16,264 bases of DNA from Elusimicrobiota bacterium (GCA_043819795.1 JBDREN010000112.1:1-16264); one strand, 5' to 3'; positions 7,685 to 15,928 are shown, counted from the stretch's first letter. The notes: generated by a model from the letters alone, not told the origin. Program-made: numbers and translations.

Positions 7685-9013
<1,329 letters not shown>

Positions 9014-9019
9014 GTCGCA

Positions 9020-9199
9020 CCCTTCGCTGCGCTCAGGGCCTGAAGGCCCGCGCGAGAGAGGTTTCGTGCTCGCGCGGGTGCTCCCCCTGGGGGCTGCCGC
9101 CCCCTCGGGCCCGCAAGACCCTCCGGGCCTTGCGGGTCACCCCCACTAAGGTCGGCGGGCCATGCCGCCGGCCTTATAGGTCCCGGCTTTCTTGGCCGG
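9020..9199. other. Cluster of tandem GC-rich hairpins (REP-like or structured RNA candidate)
   Basis: Stems at 9047-9056/9069-9078, 9108-9117/9129-9138, 9147-9158/9165-9176 and 9183-9187/9195-9199, preceded by CCCTTCGCTGCGCTCAGGG (9020-9038). Confidence 0.5.
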
Positions 9200-9201
9200 T
9201 A

Positions 9202-9232
9202 AACGAACAGCCCCCGGGAGGGGGCTGTTGTT
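9202..9232. terminator. Intrinsic terminator between convergent asnS and the peptide gene, possibly bidirectional
   Basis: Perfect 10-bp stem AACAGCCCCC-GGGA-GGGGGCTGTT (9206-9229). Tail TTCGTTT on - and TTGTT on +. Confidence 0.7.
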
Positions 9233-9257
9233 GGGTGGTCGTATGCGTCTTAAAGGG

Positions 9258-9503
9258 CTATATCTGCGGGCTCGCTTCGCCGCAGCTATTGGGCCATACG
9301 CAGGGGCGGACCTTCACGAGGACCGGCAGGGGGCGCGCTGAGTCGCCGCACGTGTTCGGCCAGATGCAGGGGCGGACCGCGGCGGTCTGGATCATCGTCT
9401 GCGAGCTGCACTTGTTGGGAAAGATGCACGGCTTGAATTGGGCGGTCTGCGTTTCCGCCTGAAAGACCGAGGTGAGGGAGAGCATCAAAACCAGTTCGAG
9501 CAT
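9258..9503 (-). CDS. Small, probably exported peptide with three Cys-pair repeats PC(I/V)(F/W)PNxC
   Basis: 81 aa; GGAGG 10 nt before ATG; hydrophobic N-terminus; repeats FKPCIFPNKCS, VRPCIWPNTCG, VRPCVWPNSCG; own -10 upstream and terminator downstream. Confidence 0.8.
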   Translation of the reverse strand: MLELVLMLSLTSVFQAETQTAQFKPCIFPNKCSSQTMIQTAAVRPCIWPNTCGDSARPLPVLVKVRPCVWPNSCGEASPQI

Positions 9504-9550
9504 ACTTCCGTGTCCTCCGTACGGCTTCTCCTTCCTTATCCGACAGGACC

Positions 9551-9628
9551 ATAGTACCTATATGGCGCATGGGACCTTATGACCCGCGTCAAAACGGGAT
9601 GTTGATCCAGGTCAATGACGCGGGTCAA
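9551..9628 (-). promoter_or_regulatory. Crp/Fnr-dependent promoter of the peptide gene: -10 TACTAT plus three FNR-like boxes
   Basis: -10 TACTAT is the complement of 9551-9556. Boxes ATGAC-CCGC-GTCAA (9579-9592), TTGAT-CCAG-GTCAA (9602-9615) and ATGAC-GCGG-GTCAA (9615-9628) resemble the FNR consensus TTGAT-N4-ATCAA. Confidence 0.7.
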
Positions 9629-9647
9629 GCGCCCGCGGTCGGGCGGG

Positions 9648-10361
9648 TCAGGAGAAGTGGCCGGCGACGCTGCGGGCTTTTTCGACGTCTATGATGACGA
9701 TGTCCCTGCCCTTGCGCTGAACCAGACCCCGGGACTCGAAGTCCTTGAGCAGGCGGACCGTGGTCTCGATGGTCAGGCCCGCCATCTCGGCGATCTCCCG
9801 GCGCTTGAAGTTGCACACGGCGGGACGGCCCTTCTTGCCGGAGGGATGGGTCATCATGCGTATGAGCGTGCCCGCCAGGCGCGAGCGCGCCGGCTTGAAG
9901 GCTATGTCGCGGGCCATGGCCTCGCTGCGGCGGACATCCCGGGCCACCTCGTGCAGGAGGGCCAGGGCTCCTTTCGGGTGCTCCAGAAGGAACTTCCACA
10001 GGGCATCCTCGGTGATCATGGACATGACCGACTCCTCCATCGCCTCGGCGCTGCCGGCGTAGGGCCAGCGAGCGAGCGAGGAGATGTGGCCGACCAGGTC
10101 CCCGGGGGACTCGATGCGCACGAGCAGCTGCTGCCCCGTGCGGCTCGCTTTGTATATCTTCACCTTGCCGGTGCAGACGACGTACACCCCACGCGGGGTT
10201 TCCCCCTCGTAGAAGATGGTCTCGCCCGGGCGGAAGCGGTTGGCGATGCGTATCTCCCTCCATGATTTCTTGGAGGGCCTGTCGCTGAGGAGATCGTAGT
10301 AGCAGTTCTTCTTGAACGGGCACCAATCGCAGTTGGGCGCTTCTTTCTTCGAGAATCCCAT
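9648..10361 (-). CDS. Crp/Fnr family transcriptional regulator with FNR-like N-terminal cysteine cluster
   Basis: C11-x2-C14-x5-C20; cNMP-type barrel (GETIFYEG, VYVVCTGKVKI, PGDLVG); HTH RREIAEMAGLTIETTVRLLKDF; GGAG 5 nt before ATG. Confidence 0.93.
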   Translation of the reverse strand: MGFSKKEAPNCDWCPFKKNCYYDLLSDRPSKKSWREIRIANRFRPGETIFYEGETPRGVYVVCTGKVKIYKASRTGQQLLVRIESPGDLVGHISSLARWPYAGSAEAMEESVMSMITEDALWKFLLEHPKGALALLHEVARDVRRSEAMARDIAFKPARSRLAGTLIRMMTHPSGKKGRPAVCNFKRREIAEMAGLTIETTVRLLKDFESRGLVQRKGRDIVIIDVEKARSVAGHFS

Positions 10362-10411
10362 GATCGCTCCGTGGCCTCGGGGAGGACGGACCCCGCCGGC
10401 TAAGGATTATG

Positions 10412-10450
10412 GGGCAATATTACAACATTGCCCTCCGGGCGACAAATGTC
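10412..10450 (-). promoter_or_regulatory. Putative promoter/operator of the Crp/Fnr gene
   Basis: On -: TTGTCG-N17-TAATAT (complements of 10440-10445 and 10417-10422). The -10 is overlapped by the inverted repeat GGGCAATATT-AC-AACATTGCCC (10412-10433, one mismatch). Confidence 0.5.
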
Positions 10451-11675
10451 AGAGGCCGGCTTCGGGATCGTCCGAGTAGGACGTCAGAATCTGCTGGAAG
10501 CGGGGAAGGTCCCAGAGGGGCTCGAACTCGTCGTCGGTTCGAGCGAGCAGCAGCGTTTTGCGCAGCTGCTCGCGCGTGTAAGCGTTCTTGAGGGACTTCT
10601 CGAGGTAGCTCAAGGCGTCGCTCAGGCGGCCGTCCAAAGAGTGGCAGAGCGCCAGCTCGTAATAGGCCGAGGAGCTCGCCGGCAGCTTAGTGAGAGCGTC
10701 CTCGAGCACATCGATGGCTTCGCCGGCCAGGCCCACATGGCGGTAGGAGGCGGCGATGCGCTCGTAGATGCGGGCCTTGGCCCGGCCGTCGAGCGTGCCT
10801 TTTCTCTCGTCGGCCATGAGCGCCGCGTCGTAGTAGTCGATGGCCTCCCGGTAGCGCTGGGAGCGGTAGGCGCTGTCGGCCGCTTCGAGGCGCTCAACCA
10901 CCCGGGGGTCCTTGAGCGGGGCGTCAAGCGCTTCTGATATCGTCTCGGTCGGCACGTCCCGGATCGAGTCGCGCAGCGAGTCGAAACCGCGGATGCGCTC
11001 CTCGGCCTCGTCCTCGGTGAGGGCTCCGGCCTCCACCGCCTCGTAAGCGTCCAGGATGACCTCGTTCTGGGGGATTTCGAGCAGGCCCGAGAAAAGAGAG
11101 TCGCTTCGGATCAGCCTGGCCAGATGCGGATATGCGTCCACGCGCCGTGCGCGTCTAACGCTCACGCGGAGGTTCGCGGAGGCCATGTCCGGATTCTTCA
11201 TCTTGTGGCGGAGCCTGGCCGCGTAGAGGTGCGGCATCGGGTTGCGTGGAGAGGCGCGAGCGGCTTTCCCGATGGCGTTCAGCGCCGGCTTGTAGCGCCC
11301 GAGGGCCTCGTGGCACTGGGCCAGGCTGTGATAAAGCAGGAACGGCTCCTCCAGCGACCCCAGGCGCGGCTCGAGCGCGAGGGCGGTCTCGAAGGCCTCG
11401 ACGGCTCTCCGGGCGTCCTCCTTGTCGGCCTTTTCCGCGCTGCCGCGCAGGAATGCCCGCTGGTAGTGGGCGTAGCCGAGCTGGAAGAAAGCCTCGACGG
11501 AGCCGGCGTCGGCGCGGATGGCCCGCTCGAAGAGCTTGATCGCCCCGGCGTACTCCTCGGAGTTCATCTCCCGTACGCCGCGCTCCACGAGCCGCTCGGC
11601 CTGGCCCGCCAGGGCGGGGACGGCGGTCGCCAGCATCAGCATGATCGTGAGAAGGCGTTTGGACATCTGTCTCAT
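10449..11675 (-). CDS. Exported tetratricopeptide-repeat protein
   Basis: Signal peptide (SKRLLTIMLMLATAVPALA|G); TPR helices (AFFQLGYAHY, YHSLAQCHEALG, AYYELALCHSL); two halves ending in similar DSLFSGL and DDEFEPL motifs; TATAAT at the complement of 11701-11706. Start is 11675 or 11666. Confidence 0.85.
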   Translation of the reverse strand: MRQMSKRLLTIMLMLATAVPALAGQAERLVERGVREMNSEEYAGAIKLFERAIRADAGSVEAFFQLGYAHYQRAFLRGSAEKADKEDARRAVEAFETALALEPRLGSLEEPFLLYHSLAQCHEALGRYKPALNAIGKAARASPRNPMPHLYAARLRHKMKNPDMASANLRVSVRRARRVDAYPHLARLIRSDSLFSGLLEIPQNEVILDAYEAVEAGALTEDEAEERIRGFDSLRDSIRDVPTETISEALDAPLKDPRVVERLEAADSAYRSQRYREAIDYYDAALMADERKGTLDGRAKARIYERIAASYRHVGLAGEAIDVLEDALTKLPASSSAYYELALCHSLDGRLSDALSYLEKSLKNAYTREQLRKTLLLARTDDEFEPLWDLPRFQQILTSYSDDPEAGL

Positions 11676-12189: not shown

Positions 12190-12262
12190 GGTGGCCGTAG
12201 CTCAAGGGTAGAGCGCCAGGTTGTGGCCCTGGAGGCTGCGGGTTCGAGCCCCGTCGGTCACC
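12190..12262 (+). tRNA. tRNA-His (GUG)
   Basis: Acceptor GTGGCCG/CGGTCAC; D stem GCTC/GAGC; anticodon stem CCAGG/CCTGG with GTG at 12223-12225; T arm GCGGG-TTCGAGC-CCCGT. G-1 (12190) and C discriminator (12262) are typical of His. CCA is not encoded. Confidence 0.97.
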
Positions 12263-12271
12263 CTTTCGATT

Positions 12272-12304
12272 TGTCTTGACATTTGTCCGGACGTCTGTTA
12301 TCCT
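12272..12304 (+). promoter_or_regulatory. Promoter and periodic operator of the Xre-RES operon
   Basis: TTGACA (12276-12281), 17 nt, TATCCT (12299-12304), overlaid by TGTC-tt-GACA-tt-TGTC-cg-GACG-tc-TGTT. Confidence 0.75.
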
Positions 12305-12322
12305 ATCGTTGAGGGCGCCGTC

Positions 12323-12676
12323 ATGGCAAGAACGCTCGAACGATGGGACAAGATGCTGGCCCGGCTGCAGGAGCGCCTCGGTCTCTCCCAGGAAGAGCTC
12401 GCCCGCATCCTGGGCGTCAGCAGCCGGAACCTGTCACGCTGGCTTTCCGGCGAGATTGGGAATCCCGGGGAGTCGCACTTCCAGAACCTCCTCGCCATCG
12501 AAGAGATCGTCGGGGAAGCGGGTAAGGCCCTCAAGCCCGACAAGATCGCGCTCTGGTTCCGGACCCCGAATCCGGCGCTCGCGGACCTGCGCCCCCTCGA
12601 CCTGCTCGCAAGCCGCAGCGGCCAGGCGCGCGTGAAGAGCCTCCTCGGGCAGGTCCGCTGGGGCATCCCCACCTAA
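12323..12676 (+). CDS. Xre/MbcA/ParS-type antitoxin (HTH plus toxin-binding domain)
   Basis: Start reassigned to ATG 12323 after GAGG. HTH LGLSQEELARILGVSSRNLSRW; C-domain WFRTPNPALADLRPLDLL..G..RV..LLG...WG. Confidence 0.92.
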   Translation: MARTLERWDKMLARLQERLGLSQEELARILGVSSRNLSRWLSGEIGNPGESHFQNLLAIEEIVGEAGKALKPDKIALWFRTPNPALADLRPLDLLASRSGQARVKSLLGQVRWGIPT

Positions 12677-12678
12677 GC

Positions 12679-13200
12679 TTGGCCTCCTCTCTCGCATCCA
12701 AGCTCAAGTCCCTCCCCAGTATCCGCGTCAAAGGCGAGTTCTTCCGCATGGTGCGGGAGGAGGACGCTGATGGCCTTCTCTCGGCCGGGCCCAGCTTCGC
12801 CTTCGGCGGCCGTTACAGCAAGCCCGGCGAGTTCGGAGCGCTCTACCTCAGTGATGACCCAAAGACCTGCGAGGCGGAGAAGCTCAAGCAGGTCGCCGGT
12901 CGGCGCGATCTTCTCCCCCCTCAAGCGCTCGGCCGCTTCGGAGCGGACGTGAGCGGTGTCGTGGACCTCACCGATGACGACAACCTGAAGAAGCTGGGTG
13001 TGTCCATAGGCCAGCTCACGGATCCGCTCGACGTGACGTTGCCGCGGGAGATCGGCGCTGCGGCGCGGAGCCTTGGCATCAGAGCCCTGCTGGTGCGGTC
13101 AGCGGCCGCGCTTGGAAAGAACCTGGCCGTCTTCGAGGAAGGCTTGACGAGTCCGGACTGCACCGTGAAGGTCATCAACACCCAGCGCTGGACCGTATGA
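12679..13200 (+). CDS. RES-domain toxin (MbcT/ParT-like NAD+-consuming enzyme)
   Basis: FFR, GGRYSKPGEFGALYLS, CEAE, VVDLTD, LLVRSAA, NLAVF; starts 2 nt after the antitoxin stop (TTG). Confidence 0.9.
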   Translation: MASSLASKLKSLPSIRVKGEFFRMVREEDADGLLSAGPSFAFGGRYSKPGEFGALYLSDDPKTCEAEKLKQVAGRRDLLPPQALGRFGADVSGVVDLTDDDNLKKLGVSIGQLTDPLDVTLPREIGAAARSLGIRALLVRSAAALGKNLAVFEEGLTSPDCTVKVINTQRWTV

Positions 13201-13994: not shown

Positions 13995-14023
13995 TTGTGT
14001 ATAACACATTAGTATACTATAGT
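13995..14023 (+). promoter_or_regulatory. IS internal promoter, likely giving a leaderless mRNA
   Basis: TTGTGT (13995-14000), 17 nt, TATAGT (14018-14023); ATG follows 7 nt later with no SD. Confidence 0.65.
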
Positions 14024-14030
14024 GTGGTAT

Positions 14031-14399
14031 ATGAACAAGCTCCAACTCGCCAAGCTGCGCCAGCGGATCCGCGAGCTCAAAGCACGCCGCAATACGCTGG
14101 AGGGTATCGCCCAACAGCACCACGCCATGGTCGCCGCCTCGCTCATCGAGCGCCGCTTCCGGCCCGGAGCGCCTCCGGCCTACTACCTATCGATCCCCGG
14201 CCCGCAGAACAGCCGCCATCGCTACGTTCGTAAGCAGGAATTGGAGTTCGTGCGCCGGCATAGCGCGGCTTGGCGGGAGTTCGGCCGAACGATGGCGGAG
14301 TGGACGCGGGCCAATGAAGAGATCGAGCGACTGCTGCGCCGGATCGGAAAGGGCCGGTGTCGAAATGTCGATGCGCTGCTGCGGAGGAAGAAACGGTGA
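14031..14399 (+). CDS. IS accessory protein, DUF6788-like, basic
   Basis: 122 aa from ATG 14031. M..SLIER...YYLS......RYV......VR....W...R......N pattern recalls the small proteins found upstream of DDE transposases. Stop overlaps the transposase GTG. Confidence 0.75.
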   Translation: MNKLQLAKLRQRIRELKARRNTLEGIAQQHHAMVAASLIERRFRPGAPPAYYLSIPGPQNSRHRYVRKQELEFVRRHSAAWREFGRTMAEWTRANEEIERLLRRIGKGRCRNVDALLRRKKR

Positions 14400-15928
14400 A
14401 CACCTGGCACCTGTGGCGTGAAGACAAGCAGGCCGTGGCCCAAAAGCTGGAGCAGGGACAGGACCTCGACGGGCACACCAGCGCCTTTGGCGACAACGAC
14501 CTGGTCATCGGGTTCCTGATGGTGGAGGGGTTCTGGTCGGTGCTCGTCGAGACCGAAGCCGATGGGCTTAAGAAAGATAACGGCTACCCCCCACGAACGC
14601 TCAATGGGCTGTGGGCGCTGTGCGAGTTGGCGGGTGTGGAGCGGATCGCGCAGAGCGGGAAAGTCATCGGGGATGAAGCGCTTCTGCGGATGGTGGGGTT
14701 CCAGGTGGAGCAGATCGAGAGGGCCCGGGCGCAGGGTCGGCTACGCGTGGACCCGGAGACGCTGTCGAACCACTTGGGCCGCATCAGCGAGGCATCGGTG
14801 GAGAAGAGCTGGTGGGAACACGTGCGGCTGTTGAGGTCGAAGAAATGGTACCGGGGCGGGGTCTACGCTGTGGACGGTACGGACATCACCATCCCGTACG
14901 GTGAGAAGGCTAACTACGAGGGGGCTGAGCATCGCGGCGAGGCCGTCGGGTACAAGCTCGTCGTGGTGCTCAACATCGAGGAGGGCAATGAGCGGGTGGT
15001 GGGCTGGATCCTGGGGGGATTGGCGCGCAACGAGAAGACGCTGCTAAAAGAACTCATGTCCCGGTTGCGAGAGCAGTTCGGGCGCTTGGGCGATTGGATG
15101 AAGGTGTTGGTGATGGACCGGGCGTATTGGGGAGCCGAGTTCCTGGGGAATCTGAAGAAGGACGAAGGCGTCGACTACGTCATTAGAGCGAGGAGCGAAA
15201 AAATCGCGGTGGCGCAGGATATGGAAGGGTTGTCGACGCTTGGAAGCACGGTATGGCATGAGGTCGAAGAAGAGCACAGCCGGTTAGGAAGGATGAAAGT
15301 GAAGATGGCGGGATTTCCGGATTTGCCGCTGTGGGATGAGGGGGATGTGGACCATGGGCCGTGCCAGGGAGTGATCGCGGAGGAGTACGATTTGAAAGGA
15401 CGGCGGCTGCCCGAGCGCGATCGGTTCTACTACGTGACGAGCTTGCCGGTCGATCCGAAGTCAGCGGGGTCGGTGCAAAGCGTGCGGACGTACTATCGGC
15501 GTCGCTGGGCGATCGAGAACCAAGGTTTTTGGGTGCTCACCAAGCGGTGGAACCTCGACACGTTGATCGCTCGCAACCTCAATGCCATCCGTGCCCGATT
15601 GAATTTCGCGCTGCAGCTCTACAACGCGGAGAACTGCTGCGCGTGGAAGCATCCGGGGGACTTTGAGGACGAATTTCATCGGCTAAAGAGACCTCCGCAA
15701 GGAGAGCGGCTGGGCCGGCCTTCGATCATGGTCTACACCCCTGAAGGTGAGATCGCAGCGTTCCAGGTCAACGAGTACAAGGATTTGATAACGAAGGCTG
15801 TGACAAAAGAAGTCACACATGAAGTCATGAAAGAAGTGACGGAGACCGTAAAGAAGGAAGTGAAGGACCGGATCCGCGAGGGTCTGGAGCAGGGCCGGCC
15901 GCTGGACGAGGTCCTGGGGGATCTTTGA
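14396..15928 (+). CDS. DDE transposase (IS4-like, DDE_Tnp_1 type)
   Basis: YAVDGT, LVMDRAYW and YRRRWAIE (Y-2-R-3-E signature). Start reassigned to GTG 14396, 8 nt after GGAGG; 510 aa, uninterrupted. Confidence 0.92.
   Translation: MNTWHLWREDKQAVAQKLEQGQDLDGHTSAFGDNDLVIGFLMVEGFWSVLVETEADGLKKDNGYPPRTLNGLWALCELAGVERIAQSGKVIGDEALLRMVGFQVEQIERARAQGRLRVDPETLSNHLGRISEASVEKSWWEHVRLLRSKKWYRGGVYAVDGTDITIPYGEKANYEGAEHRGEAVGYKLVVVLNIEEGNERVVGWILGGLARNEKTLLKELMSRLREQFGRLGDWMKVLVMDRAYWGAEFLGNLKKDEGVDYVIRARSEKIAVAQDMEGLSTLGSTVWHEVEEEHSRLGRMKVKMAGFPDLPLWDEGDVDHGPCQGVIAEEYDLKGRRLPERDRFYYVTSLPVDPKSAGSVQSVRTYYRRRWAIENQGFWVLTKRWNLDTLIARNLNAIRARLNFALQLYNAENCCAWKHPGDFEDEFHRLKRPPQGERLGRPSIMVYTPEGEIAAFQVNEYKDLITKAVTKEVTHEVMKEVTETVKKEVKDRIREGLEQGRPLDEVLGDL

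Follow-up and report, generated by a model that had tools for sequence, protein, structure and literature searches.

An FNR-like regulator and an unannotated family of two-cysteine peptides with FNR-type boxes in one branch of uncultured Elusimicrobiota

What is known of the phylum Elusimicrobiota comes almost entirely from metagenomes. The closest described counterparts of the locus considered here are the oxygen-sensing regulator FNR and two kinds of small secreted peptides, the bufferins and oxazolins and the peptides of the Rap-Phr systems. In FNR, the ligands of the cluster are Cys20, Cys23, Cys29, and Cys122 (PMC4672761). The FNR recognition helix is described as having a conserved Glu, Ser, and Arg, and class II FNR sites as being centred at -41.5 (PMC7713065). 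Bufferins are described as cysteine-containing RiPPs that bear a Sec signal (PMC11626156).

The window, i.e., the whole stretch of DNA that was analysed, is 16,264 nucleotides long and comes from an Elusimicrobiota bacterium (GCA_043819795.1, JBDREN010000112.1:1-16264). On its minus strand, a gene for an FNR-like Crp/Fnr regulator of 237 aa (9648-10361) lies directly upstream of an 81-aa gene with cysteine repeats (9258-9503), and both open reading frames were found as claimed in the original prediction. The peptide gene, supported by an ORF call and a family search, encodes a signal-like N-terminus followed by three P-C-x-(W/F)-P-N-x-C units. The putative export signal (residues 1-21; 9441-9503, minus strand) is short and hydrophobic and ends in Q-T-A before Gln22. 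It is atypical in that it has no basic residue and hence no basic n-region. The three units, also on the minus strand, comprise residues 22-32 with Cys26/Cys32 (9408-9440), residues 42-52 with Cys46/Cys52 (9348-9380), and residues 64-74 with Cys68/Cys74 (9282-9314).

The spacer between the peptide gene and the regulator gene (9504-9647, 144 bp) contains the three boxes that had been predicted, in the form TGA(C/T)-N4-(A/G)TCA (12-mers at 9580-9591, 9603-9614, and 9616-9627). Among the 300 such 12-mers in the 4.99-Mb genome, which is 90% complete, this is the sole triple within 144 bp. Boxes were scored as 14-mers out of 10 against TTGAY-N4-RTCAA. By this score the proximal FNR-type box (9579-9592) is 9/10, the middle one (9602-9615) is perfect at 10/10, and the distal one (9615-9628), which overlaps the perfect box by one base, is 9/10. 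Their centres are at -41.5 (the class II position), -64.5, and -77.5 of the predicted promoter. The peptide gene was also claimed to have its own -10, ribosome-binding site, and terminator. The first two are present: a predicted -10 hexamer TACTAT (9556-9551, minus strand), whose spacing to the proximal box is conserved in relatives, and a Shine-Dalgarno-like GGAGG (9518-9514, minus strand) 10 nt before the peptide ATG. The terminator is plausible only. It would be a G+C-rich hairpin of 10 bp with a weak U tail after the peptide stop codon (9206-9229, minus strand), probably common to the peptide gene and the convergent asnS. A generic sigma-70 promoter scan gave no promoter in 8500-11000, as expected if an activator site replaces the -35 element, and Rfam gave no match in 8900-10500.

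The conserved upstream neighbour of the regulator is a gene for a signal-peptide-bearing TPR protein (10449-11675, minus strand). Between these two genes there is an inverted repeat, GGGCAAT-N8-ATTGCCC (10410-10431), which is a candidate hairpin or operator. On the other side of the locus, asnS is followed by an intergenic repeat of about 160 bp with multiple hairpins (9014-9180), which is REP/MITE-like and has no Rfam match. At least 25 long copies of this repeat are found elsewhere in the genome at 77-92% identity, some of them in tandem. Two other features of the window are on the plus strand. One is a gene pair for an Xre/MbcA-type antitoxin and a RES-domain protein (12221-13200), a probable toxin-antitoxin module. 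The other (14022-15928), where G+C is lower and the skew is strong, has a DUF6788-like ORF of 125 aa (below the cut-off) followed by a 523-aa ORF labelled from its sequence as transposase-like.

The 81-aa peptide has no match in Pfam, NCBIfam, or PHROG, and the ESM Atlas gave no usable match for it or for the repeat part of P0033. While a word-indexed homology search with the peptide found only three proteins, an exhaustive search found 144 matches at E<=0.001 among 50%-identity representatives. These are 141 peptides of 50-155 aa with the same two-cysteine unit and three long unrelated repeats. The ORF is regarded as coding because it is conserved, both in these 144 matches and in the synonymous third-position variation at its Pro, Val, and Asn codons. 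The unit has the consensus A-Q-(F/V)-x-(P/T)-C-V-W-P-N-x-C over 356 counted units (A in 265, Q in 240, F/V in 283, W in 302, and N in 271), and its core lacks a conserved His, Met, or acidic ligand. There are two to five units per peptide in 142 short proteins, 137 of which have an even number of cysteines, and single-unit members are found beside the regulator in relatives.

When 301 genomes from across the phylum were searched with a profile, the peptide family was detected in 25: this genome, 23 of the 39 others of its order, and the one genome (1/1) sampled in a neighbouring family of the class. None was detected in the remaining 260 sampled genomes of the phylum. The species collection gave 71 loci, of which 68 are titled Elusimicrobia/Elusimicrobiota or Endomicrobium, two are titled "bacterium", and one is titled Frankiales. 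The Frankiales-titled locus (L121, E 3e-4) was rejected as a family member, as the motif is absent, and was left out of the promoter counts. The locus titled GWA2_69_24 (L051) has the regulator-peptide arrangement found here. GWA2_69_24 is an example of lineage IV, groundwater Elusimicrobia that are predicted to respire O2 or nitrate (10.1101/765248). Instead of the one small peptide of the original prediction, there is a multi-copy family. This genome (G000) has a second copy (C157:13174-13479) with four units, boxes, and no regulator alongside. Among 41 genomes with a credible peptide match, 26 have one locus, 10 have two, and five have three, and some loci consist of three tandem genes. A literature search, mostly of the main texts of openly accessible papers, found no description of the family. 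The family is unannotated and without a name, and its members come from a single branch of uncultured Elusimicrobiota and from a few viral contigs.

The peptide is predicted to be exported. A strongly hydrophobic stretch of eight residues is found in 71% of the 142 peptides, and Lys or Arg occurs within the first five residues in only 22 of them. The residue before the first unit is Ala in 102 of the 142 peptides, and most internal units follow an Ala too (177 counts). Viral contigs carry three distinct single-unit peptide genes (on four contigs), which encode a basic n-region, a long h-region, A-x-A, and then one unit of 13-14 residues and a stop. Two of the three viral versions have perfect boxes and adjoin terminase small-subunit genes; the third has no box. 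Another seven of the 11 viral pattern matches have no hydrophobic leader and were judged to be chance matches. No match to a viral single-unit copy was found among GenBank phages. The viral copies combine canonical signals with a single unit, and they provide the strongest case both for export of the family and for a single unit being the part that functions. They would define the active unit, which phages retain along with a box of the host type. Export through Sec, with cleavage at A|Q, is predicted with good confidence, and internal A|Q sites may release units of 11-14 residues.

A full-length orthologue of the regulator is found once each in 54 of 61 genomes, at 51-78% identity. The regulator scores over the cut-offs of PF00027 (cNMP-binding) and PF13545 (Crp-type HTH), and fold searches agree. 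Cys11, Cys14, and Cys20 (C-x2-C-x5-C) and also Cys63 are invariant in the 36 aligned orthologues. All 36 have Ser114 at the column where the Cys-bearing paralogue of this genome has its fourth Cys. From this paralogue and a sequence motif, we take this column to be that of E. coli Cys122. In the recognition helix, E199-x-x-V202-R203, all three named residues are found in 36/36 orthologues, and three paralogues have Ser for Val202. Ser114 and Val202 are therefore the positions where FNR has Cys and Ser. An AlphaFold model built with an alignment has a pLDDT of 88.8 (a fold without an alignment, pLDDT 45.7, was set aside). It is closest to the holo-FNR of A. fischeri, which ranks first with Z 19-20 over 211-212 aligned residues (residues 6-237) at an rmsd of about 11 A that comes from domain movement, and this bears out the FNR-like identity first proposed. 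Sequence (PDB) and Foldseek rankings put CRP/GlxR proteins first, and the NCBIfam Fnr model (NF008365) gives 60.3 bits, below its cut-off of 228.

By its anatomy, the regulator appears to work like FNR, yet it seems to fall outside canonical FNR. We infer that it is an order-wide FNR variant with Cys63 as the fourth ligand in place of Cys122. It would probably sense O2 by an Fe-S cluster on Cys11, Cys14, Cys20, and Cys63. As for autoregulation, no box of at least 9/10 was found upstream of the regulator gene here; in relatives, at least one box is found upstream of the regulator among the matches listed. A second Crp/Fnr protein of this genome (L124:988-1746, which is G000:C180:8357-9115) has an N-terminal C-x2-C and a Cys at the canonical fourth-ligand column. 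Its gene is located upstream of a gene for a very large probable multihaem protein.

Adjacency of the two genes and conservation of the boxes, which had been proposed as checks, were both found. In the 54 genomes with the regulator, the peptide gene is within 400 bp downstream in 30 and within 3 kb in four more; it is found only elsewhere in six (two of them at contig ends) and is not found in 14. Conversely, 40 of the 41 genomes with a credible peptide match also have the regulator, and the one that lacks it is 79% complete. The boxes accompany the peptide genes and have the geometry of class II activator sites. In the titled loci, which come from kin genomes so that the counts are not independent, a box of at least 9/10 is within 250 bp of 85 of 87 peptide genes (59 perfect) vs 20 of 570 neighbouring genes, and the distance from a box to a following -10-like hexamer is 36-37 nt in 50 of the 87 and 38-39 nt in 18, vs 0-2 at five other offsets. 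Peptide copies that are not beside the regulator have a box of at least 9/10 in 31 of 33 cases. In relatives, box centres are at -41.5/-42.5, -64.5/-65.5, -77.5 to -79.5, and -90.5/-91.5, and the half-sites are TTGAC in 70 and TTGAT in 48 cases. The regulator very probably binds these boxes, and activation would come from the -41.5 site and be assisted by the upstream ones. At another locus (L027:2247-2330, in G008), three boxes and a -10-like hexamer are still present after the regulator although no peptide gene is left at this place, a promoter relic.

The family, its copy number, the adjacency, and the boxes with their spacing form the established base for explaining what the peptide does. 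Our preferred explanation, which is tentative, is that the peptide is exported and likely induced at low oxygen by the FNR-like protein, and that its units, as reduced dithiols, act in the periplasm by binding a soft metal or as a redox buffer. The disulfide- or metal-active role in the original prediction is likewise a guess. The active unit would be a reduced C-x5-C loop with Trp-Pro-Asn that is used stoichiometrically. It would hold a Cu(I)-like soft metal or scavenge oxidants near low-oxygen periplasmic enzymes, a step to which we give a little less than an even chance. Stoichiometric use would account for the presence of one to five units per gene and up to three loci per genome. That the units are reduced is suggested by the following. 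DsbB and VKOR were not found in any of the five genomes searched (G000, G013, G034, G055, and G057). Heuristically exported proteins of this genome have an even number of cysteines in 116 of 249 cases (0.47 vs 0.46 expected, in a test that relied on rough gene and signal calls and lacked a positive control). On the other side, all five genomes have DsbA-like genes, two to four per genome. With no DsbB or VKOR and no excess of even cysteine counts, a disulfide cannot be assumed by default, which favours reduced units. The conserved Q-F, V, W, P, and N speak against the metal-ligand reading in that they resemble a protein-binding epitope, and so does the core's lack of a conserved His, Met, or acidic ligand. 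Copper supply to heme-copper oxidases was considered as the core role and rejected: the peptide is found in G008, G012, and G013, which have no COX1 match, and is absent from all five genomes of the genus g15, which have these oxidases. As the peptide does not track heme-copper oxidases, supplying them with copper is not its core job.

The same regulation and export would also fit a peptide ligand, cut from each unit and closed into a ring by a disulfide, that acts as a low-oxygen signal from cell to cell or that inhibits or blocks an envelope protein, and that phages copied for mimicry or exploitation. We regard this as possible, though somewhat unlikely. For the conserved non-cysteine residues and for the viral copies, it is no worse an explanation than the metal or redox reading. 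Residues beyond the cysteine pair (A, Q, F/V, W, and N of the 356 units) are conserved across the order, the Ala before internal units is what one would expect if monomers are released, and in each of the three viral versions a canonical signal is followed by exactly one 13-14-mer. For Phr, a secreted peptide signal, duplication within the gene is known (PMC5199041). However, kin-specific signals diversify while the core is nearly constant from family to family, and DsbB and VKOR, which could close the ring, were not found. Nor is a receptor or dedicated transporter a conserved neighbour. Recurrent neighbours of the 71 peptide loci are the regulator (40/71), the TPR protein, and nucleoside and pentose-phosphate genes, with no maturase, transporter, or receptor gene among them. 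The TPR neighbour adjoins the regulator with or without the peptide gene. A complex prediction for the TPR neighbour and the peptide gave a score of 0.01, which is counted neither for nor against this reading.

A bolder version, which we consider unlikely, is a class of oxygen-gated peptides. An FNR whose fourth cluster ligand is relocated would make multi-unit precursors at low oxygen only; these would be exported and cut to dithiols of 13 residues in cells without DsbB and VKOR, and their ring would close only with oxygen or metal. The product, open or closed, would be an extracellular redox signal or a metal ligand, carried by phages together with the host box to read or spoof the oxygen state.

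It is doubtful that the peptide is a multi-core RiPP precursor, modified in trans before Sec export either by a radical-SAM enzyme (a cyclophane or thioether at W-P-N/Cys) or by an MNIO, in the manner of bufferins. We take its aromatic-Pro-X and Cys repeats to resemble RiPP cores. Candidate enzymes are available, since proteins with a SPASM domain are found in 60 of 61 genomes, with or without the peptide, and in this genome there are 51 matches to radical-SAM and one to MNIO. However, no maturase is among the conserved neighbours of the 71 loci, for which up to 6 kb on each side contains one CxxxCxxC radical-SAM gene in all. No such enzyme is found near the viral copies in the stretches read, and no RiPP-precursor model matched the peptide. 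MNIO is found in 20 of the 61 genomes and in only two of 16 family relatives, 15 of which have a credible peptide match. MNIO maturation was thus rejected on linkage and co-occurrence, and a linked radical-SAM maturase was rejected on the single radical-SAM-motif gene across the 71 loci.

The explanation preferred above, reduced dithiol units induced at low oxygen, takes the regulator to be probably global, and boxes are also found outside the peptide loci. In one genus, the regulator is found without the peptide in 5/5 genomes. Five peptide-less genomes have 10-22 perfect boxes each vs 0-4 for the reversed pattern. Further, 55 of 65 perfect-box sites were read in five peptide-bearing genomes. 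Intergenic perfect boxes in relatives precede genes for a 2-oxoacid oxidoreductase, PFOR, PEPCK, SDRs, and a coxB-like protein, as well as sdhC, nrfH, hcp, napD/A, dsrA, aprB, and others that are unassigned. sdhC is also boxed in G034 and in the peptide-less G020. G055 (89% complete) is informative as it has two Crp/Fnr matches, this regulator and a CRP/GlxR-like protein. Its perfect boxes precede 2-oxoacid oxidoreductase, PEPCK, sdhC, coxB-like, and SDR genes. With only two Crp/Fnr proteins there, this regulator is the likely owner of the boxes at pckA, sdhC, coxB, and the oxidoreductase.

This genome has 13 perfect boxes, 10 of them intergenic vs one in the control. They include those of the two peptide genes and two before sat-aprBA. 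Others precede genes that, by labels from sequence, we take to be for qNor-like, NifU-like, and ferredoxin proteins. No box of at least 8/10 was found within 350 bp of sdhC, pckA, one oxoacid oxidoreductase gene, or dsrA. The arrangement of a box plus a -10 is found at five places genome-wide vs 2-5 at control offsets, and only the two peptide genes have it at 9/10. Three other Crp/Fnr proteins are encoded in this genome, one with N-terminal cysteines, and they could own the other perfect boxes. In view of the unboxed central genes and these other proteins, the regulator may be nearly dedicated to the peptide in this particular genome. No other sites here are as heavily boxed as the peptide promoters, and in G013 three of the six perfect boxes are at peptide genes. 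Taken over the order, the regulator is probably a global low-oxygen switch, and among its targets the peptide genes would be the most constant and have the heaviest set of boxes, the copy behind the regulator being the ancestral one.

The original prediction of a dedicated two-gene module, with a regulator whose purpose is control of this peptide, draws on the adjacency in 34 of 54 genomes and on the heavily boxed peptide promoters, and is very improbable given that 14 of the 54 genomes keep the regulator without the peptide and that boxes precede respiratory and fermentative genes in relatives. Our claim is weaker than the earlier one, as the peptide does not have the regulator to itself.

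Two observations were made on the wider genomes. A complete-looking cluster for dissimilatory sulfate reduction is located at G000:C222:37900-62600 (L251 and L252; also L174 and L175), and its sat gene is preceded by two perfect boxes that are separated by 23 bp. Its dsrA scores over the curated cut-off, and the other members are presumably sat, aprBA, qmo-like, dsrAB, dsrD-like, dsrC-like, and dsrMK-like genes, by labels from their sequences. The dsrA and aprB genes of G003 carry boxes. The cluster may be a binning error. One Elusimicrobia assembly is reported to have a basal DsrAB and no DsrK (PMC10504309). Separately, G036 (2.9 Mb) has 68 SPASM-domain matches, many of them in ORFs of 700-1300 aa, and no match to the peptide or to a full-length regulator orthologue.

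These results give a first regulon sketch for free-living, respiring Elusimicrobiota, which are predicted to respire O2 or nitrate (10.1101/765248). They add an FNR with a different predicted set of ligands and an unannotated peptide family with a short active unit. Should the peptide prove to be an anoxia-specific metal or redox ligand or else a signal, it would represent a novel type of small exported effector. The contributions of this analysis are the test against dedication, the negative results on co-occurrence, and the failure to find DsbB or VKOR.

Compared with FNR of E. coli and Aliivibrio fischeri (PDB 5e44, 8qto, and 9qly; PMC4672761, PMC7713065), the regulator has the same Crp/Fnr fold, N-terminal C-x2-C-x5-C, and recognition-helix Glu and Arg. 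TTGA(T/C)-N4-(A/G)TCAA boxes at -41.5 and targets in respiration and fermentation are also shared, with the regulator being the probable owner of the boxes here. The regulator differs from FNR in its identity of about 24%, the Ser at the expected fourth-ligand column, the invariant Cys63, and the Val in place of the helix Ser. Further differences are half-sites that lean to TTGAC, tandem sites at -64.5, -77.5, and -90.5, and a score below the NCBIfam Fnr cut-off. Bufferins and oxazolins, as described in PMC11626156 and PMC11252979, are MNIO-modified, Sec-exported, copper-binding Cys peptides. Like them, the peptide is small, Cys-containing, and predicted to be Sec-exported, with a stress-type regulator and a possible metal role. 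Unlike them, it has no MNIO/DUF2063 partner, no co-occurrence with one, and no sequence match, and its control is of the FNR type, not by SigF. Rap-Phr and other RRNPP systems, as presented in PMC5199041, share with this locus a short propeptide that is secreted there and predicted to be so here, duplicated mature units, a regulator alongside, phage copies, and a TPR gene nearby. In contrast to those systems, the adjacent regulator here is a Crp/Fnr protein predicted to act on the peptide promoter, the TPR gene is one gene away and has a signal-like start, and the two-cysteine unit hardly diversifies.
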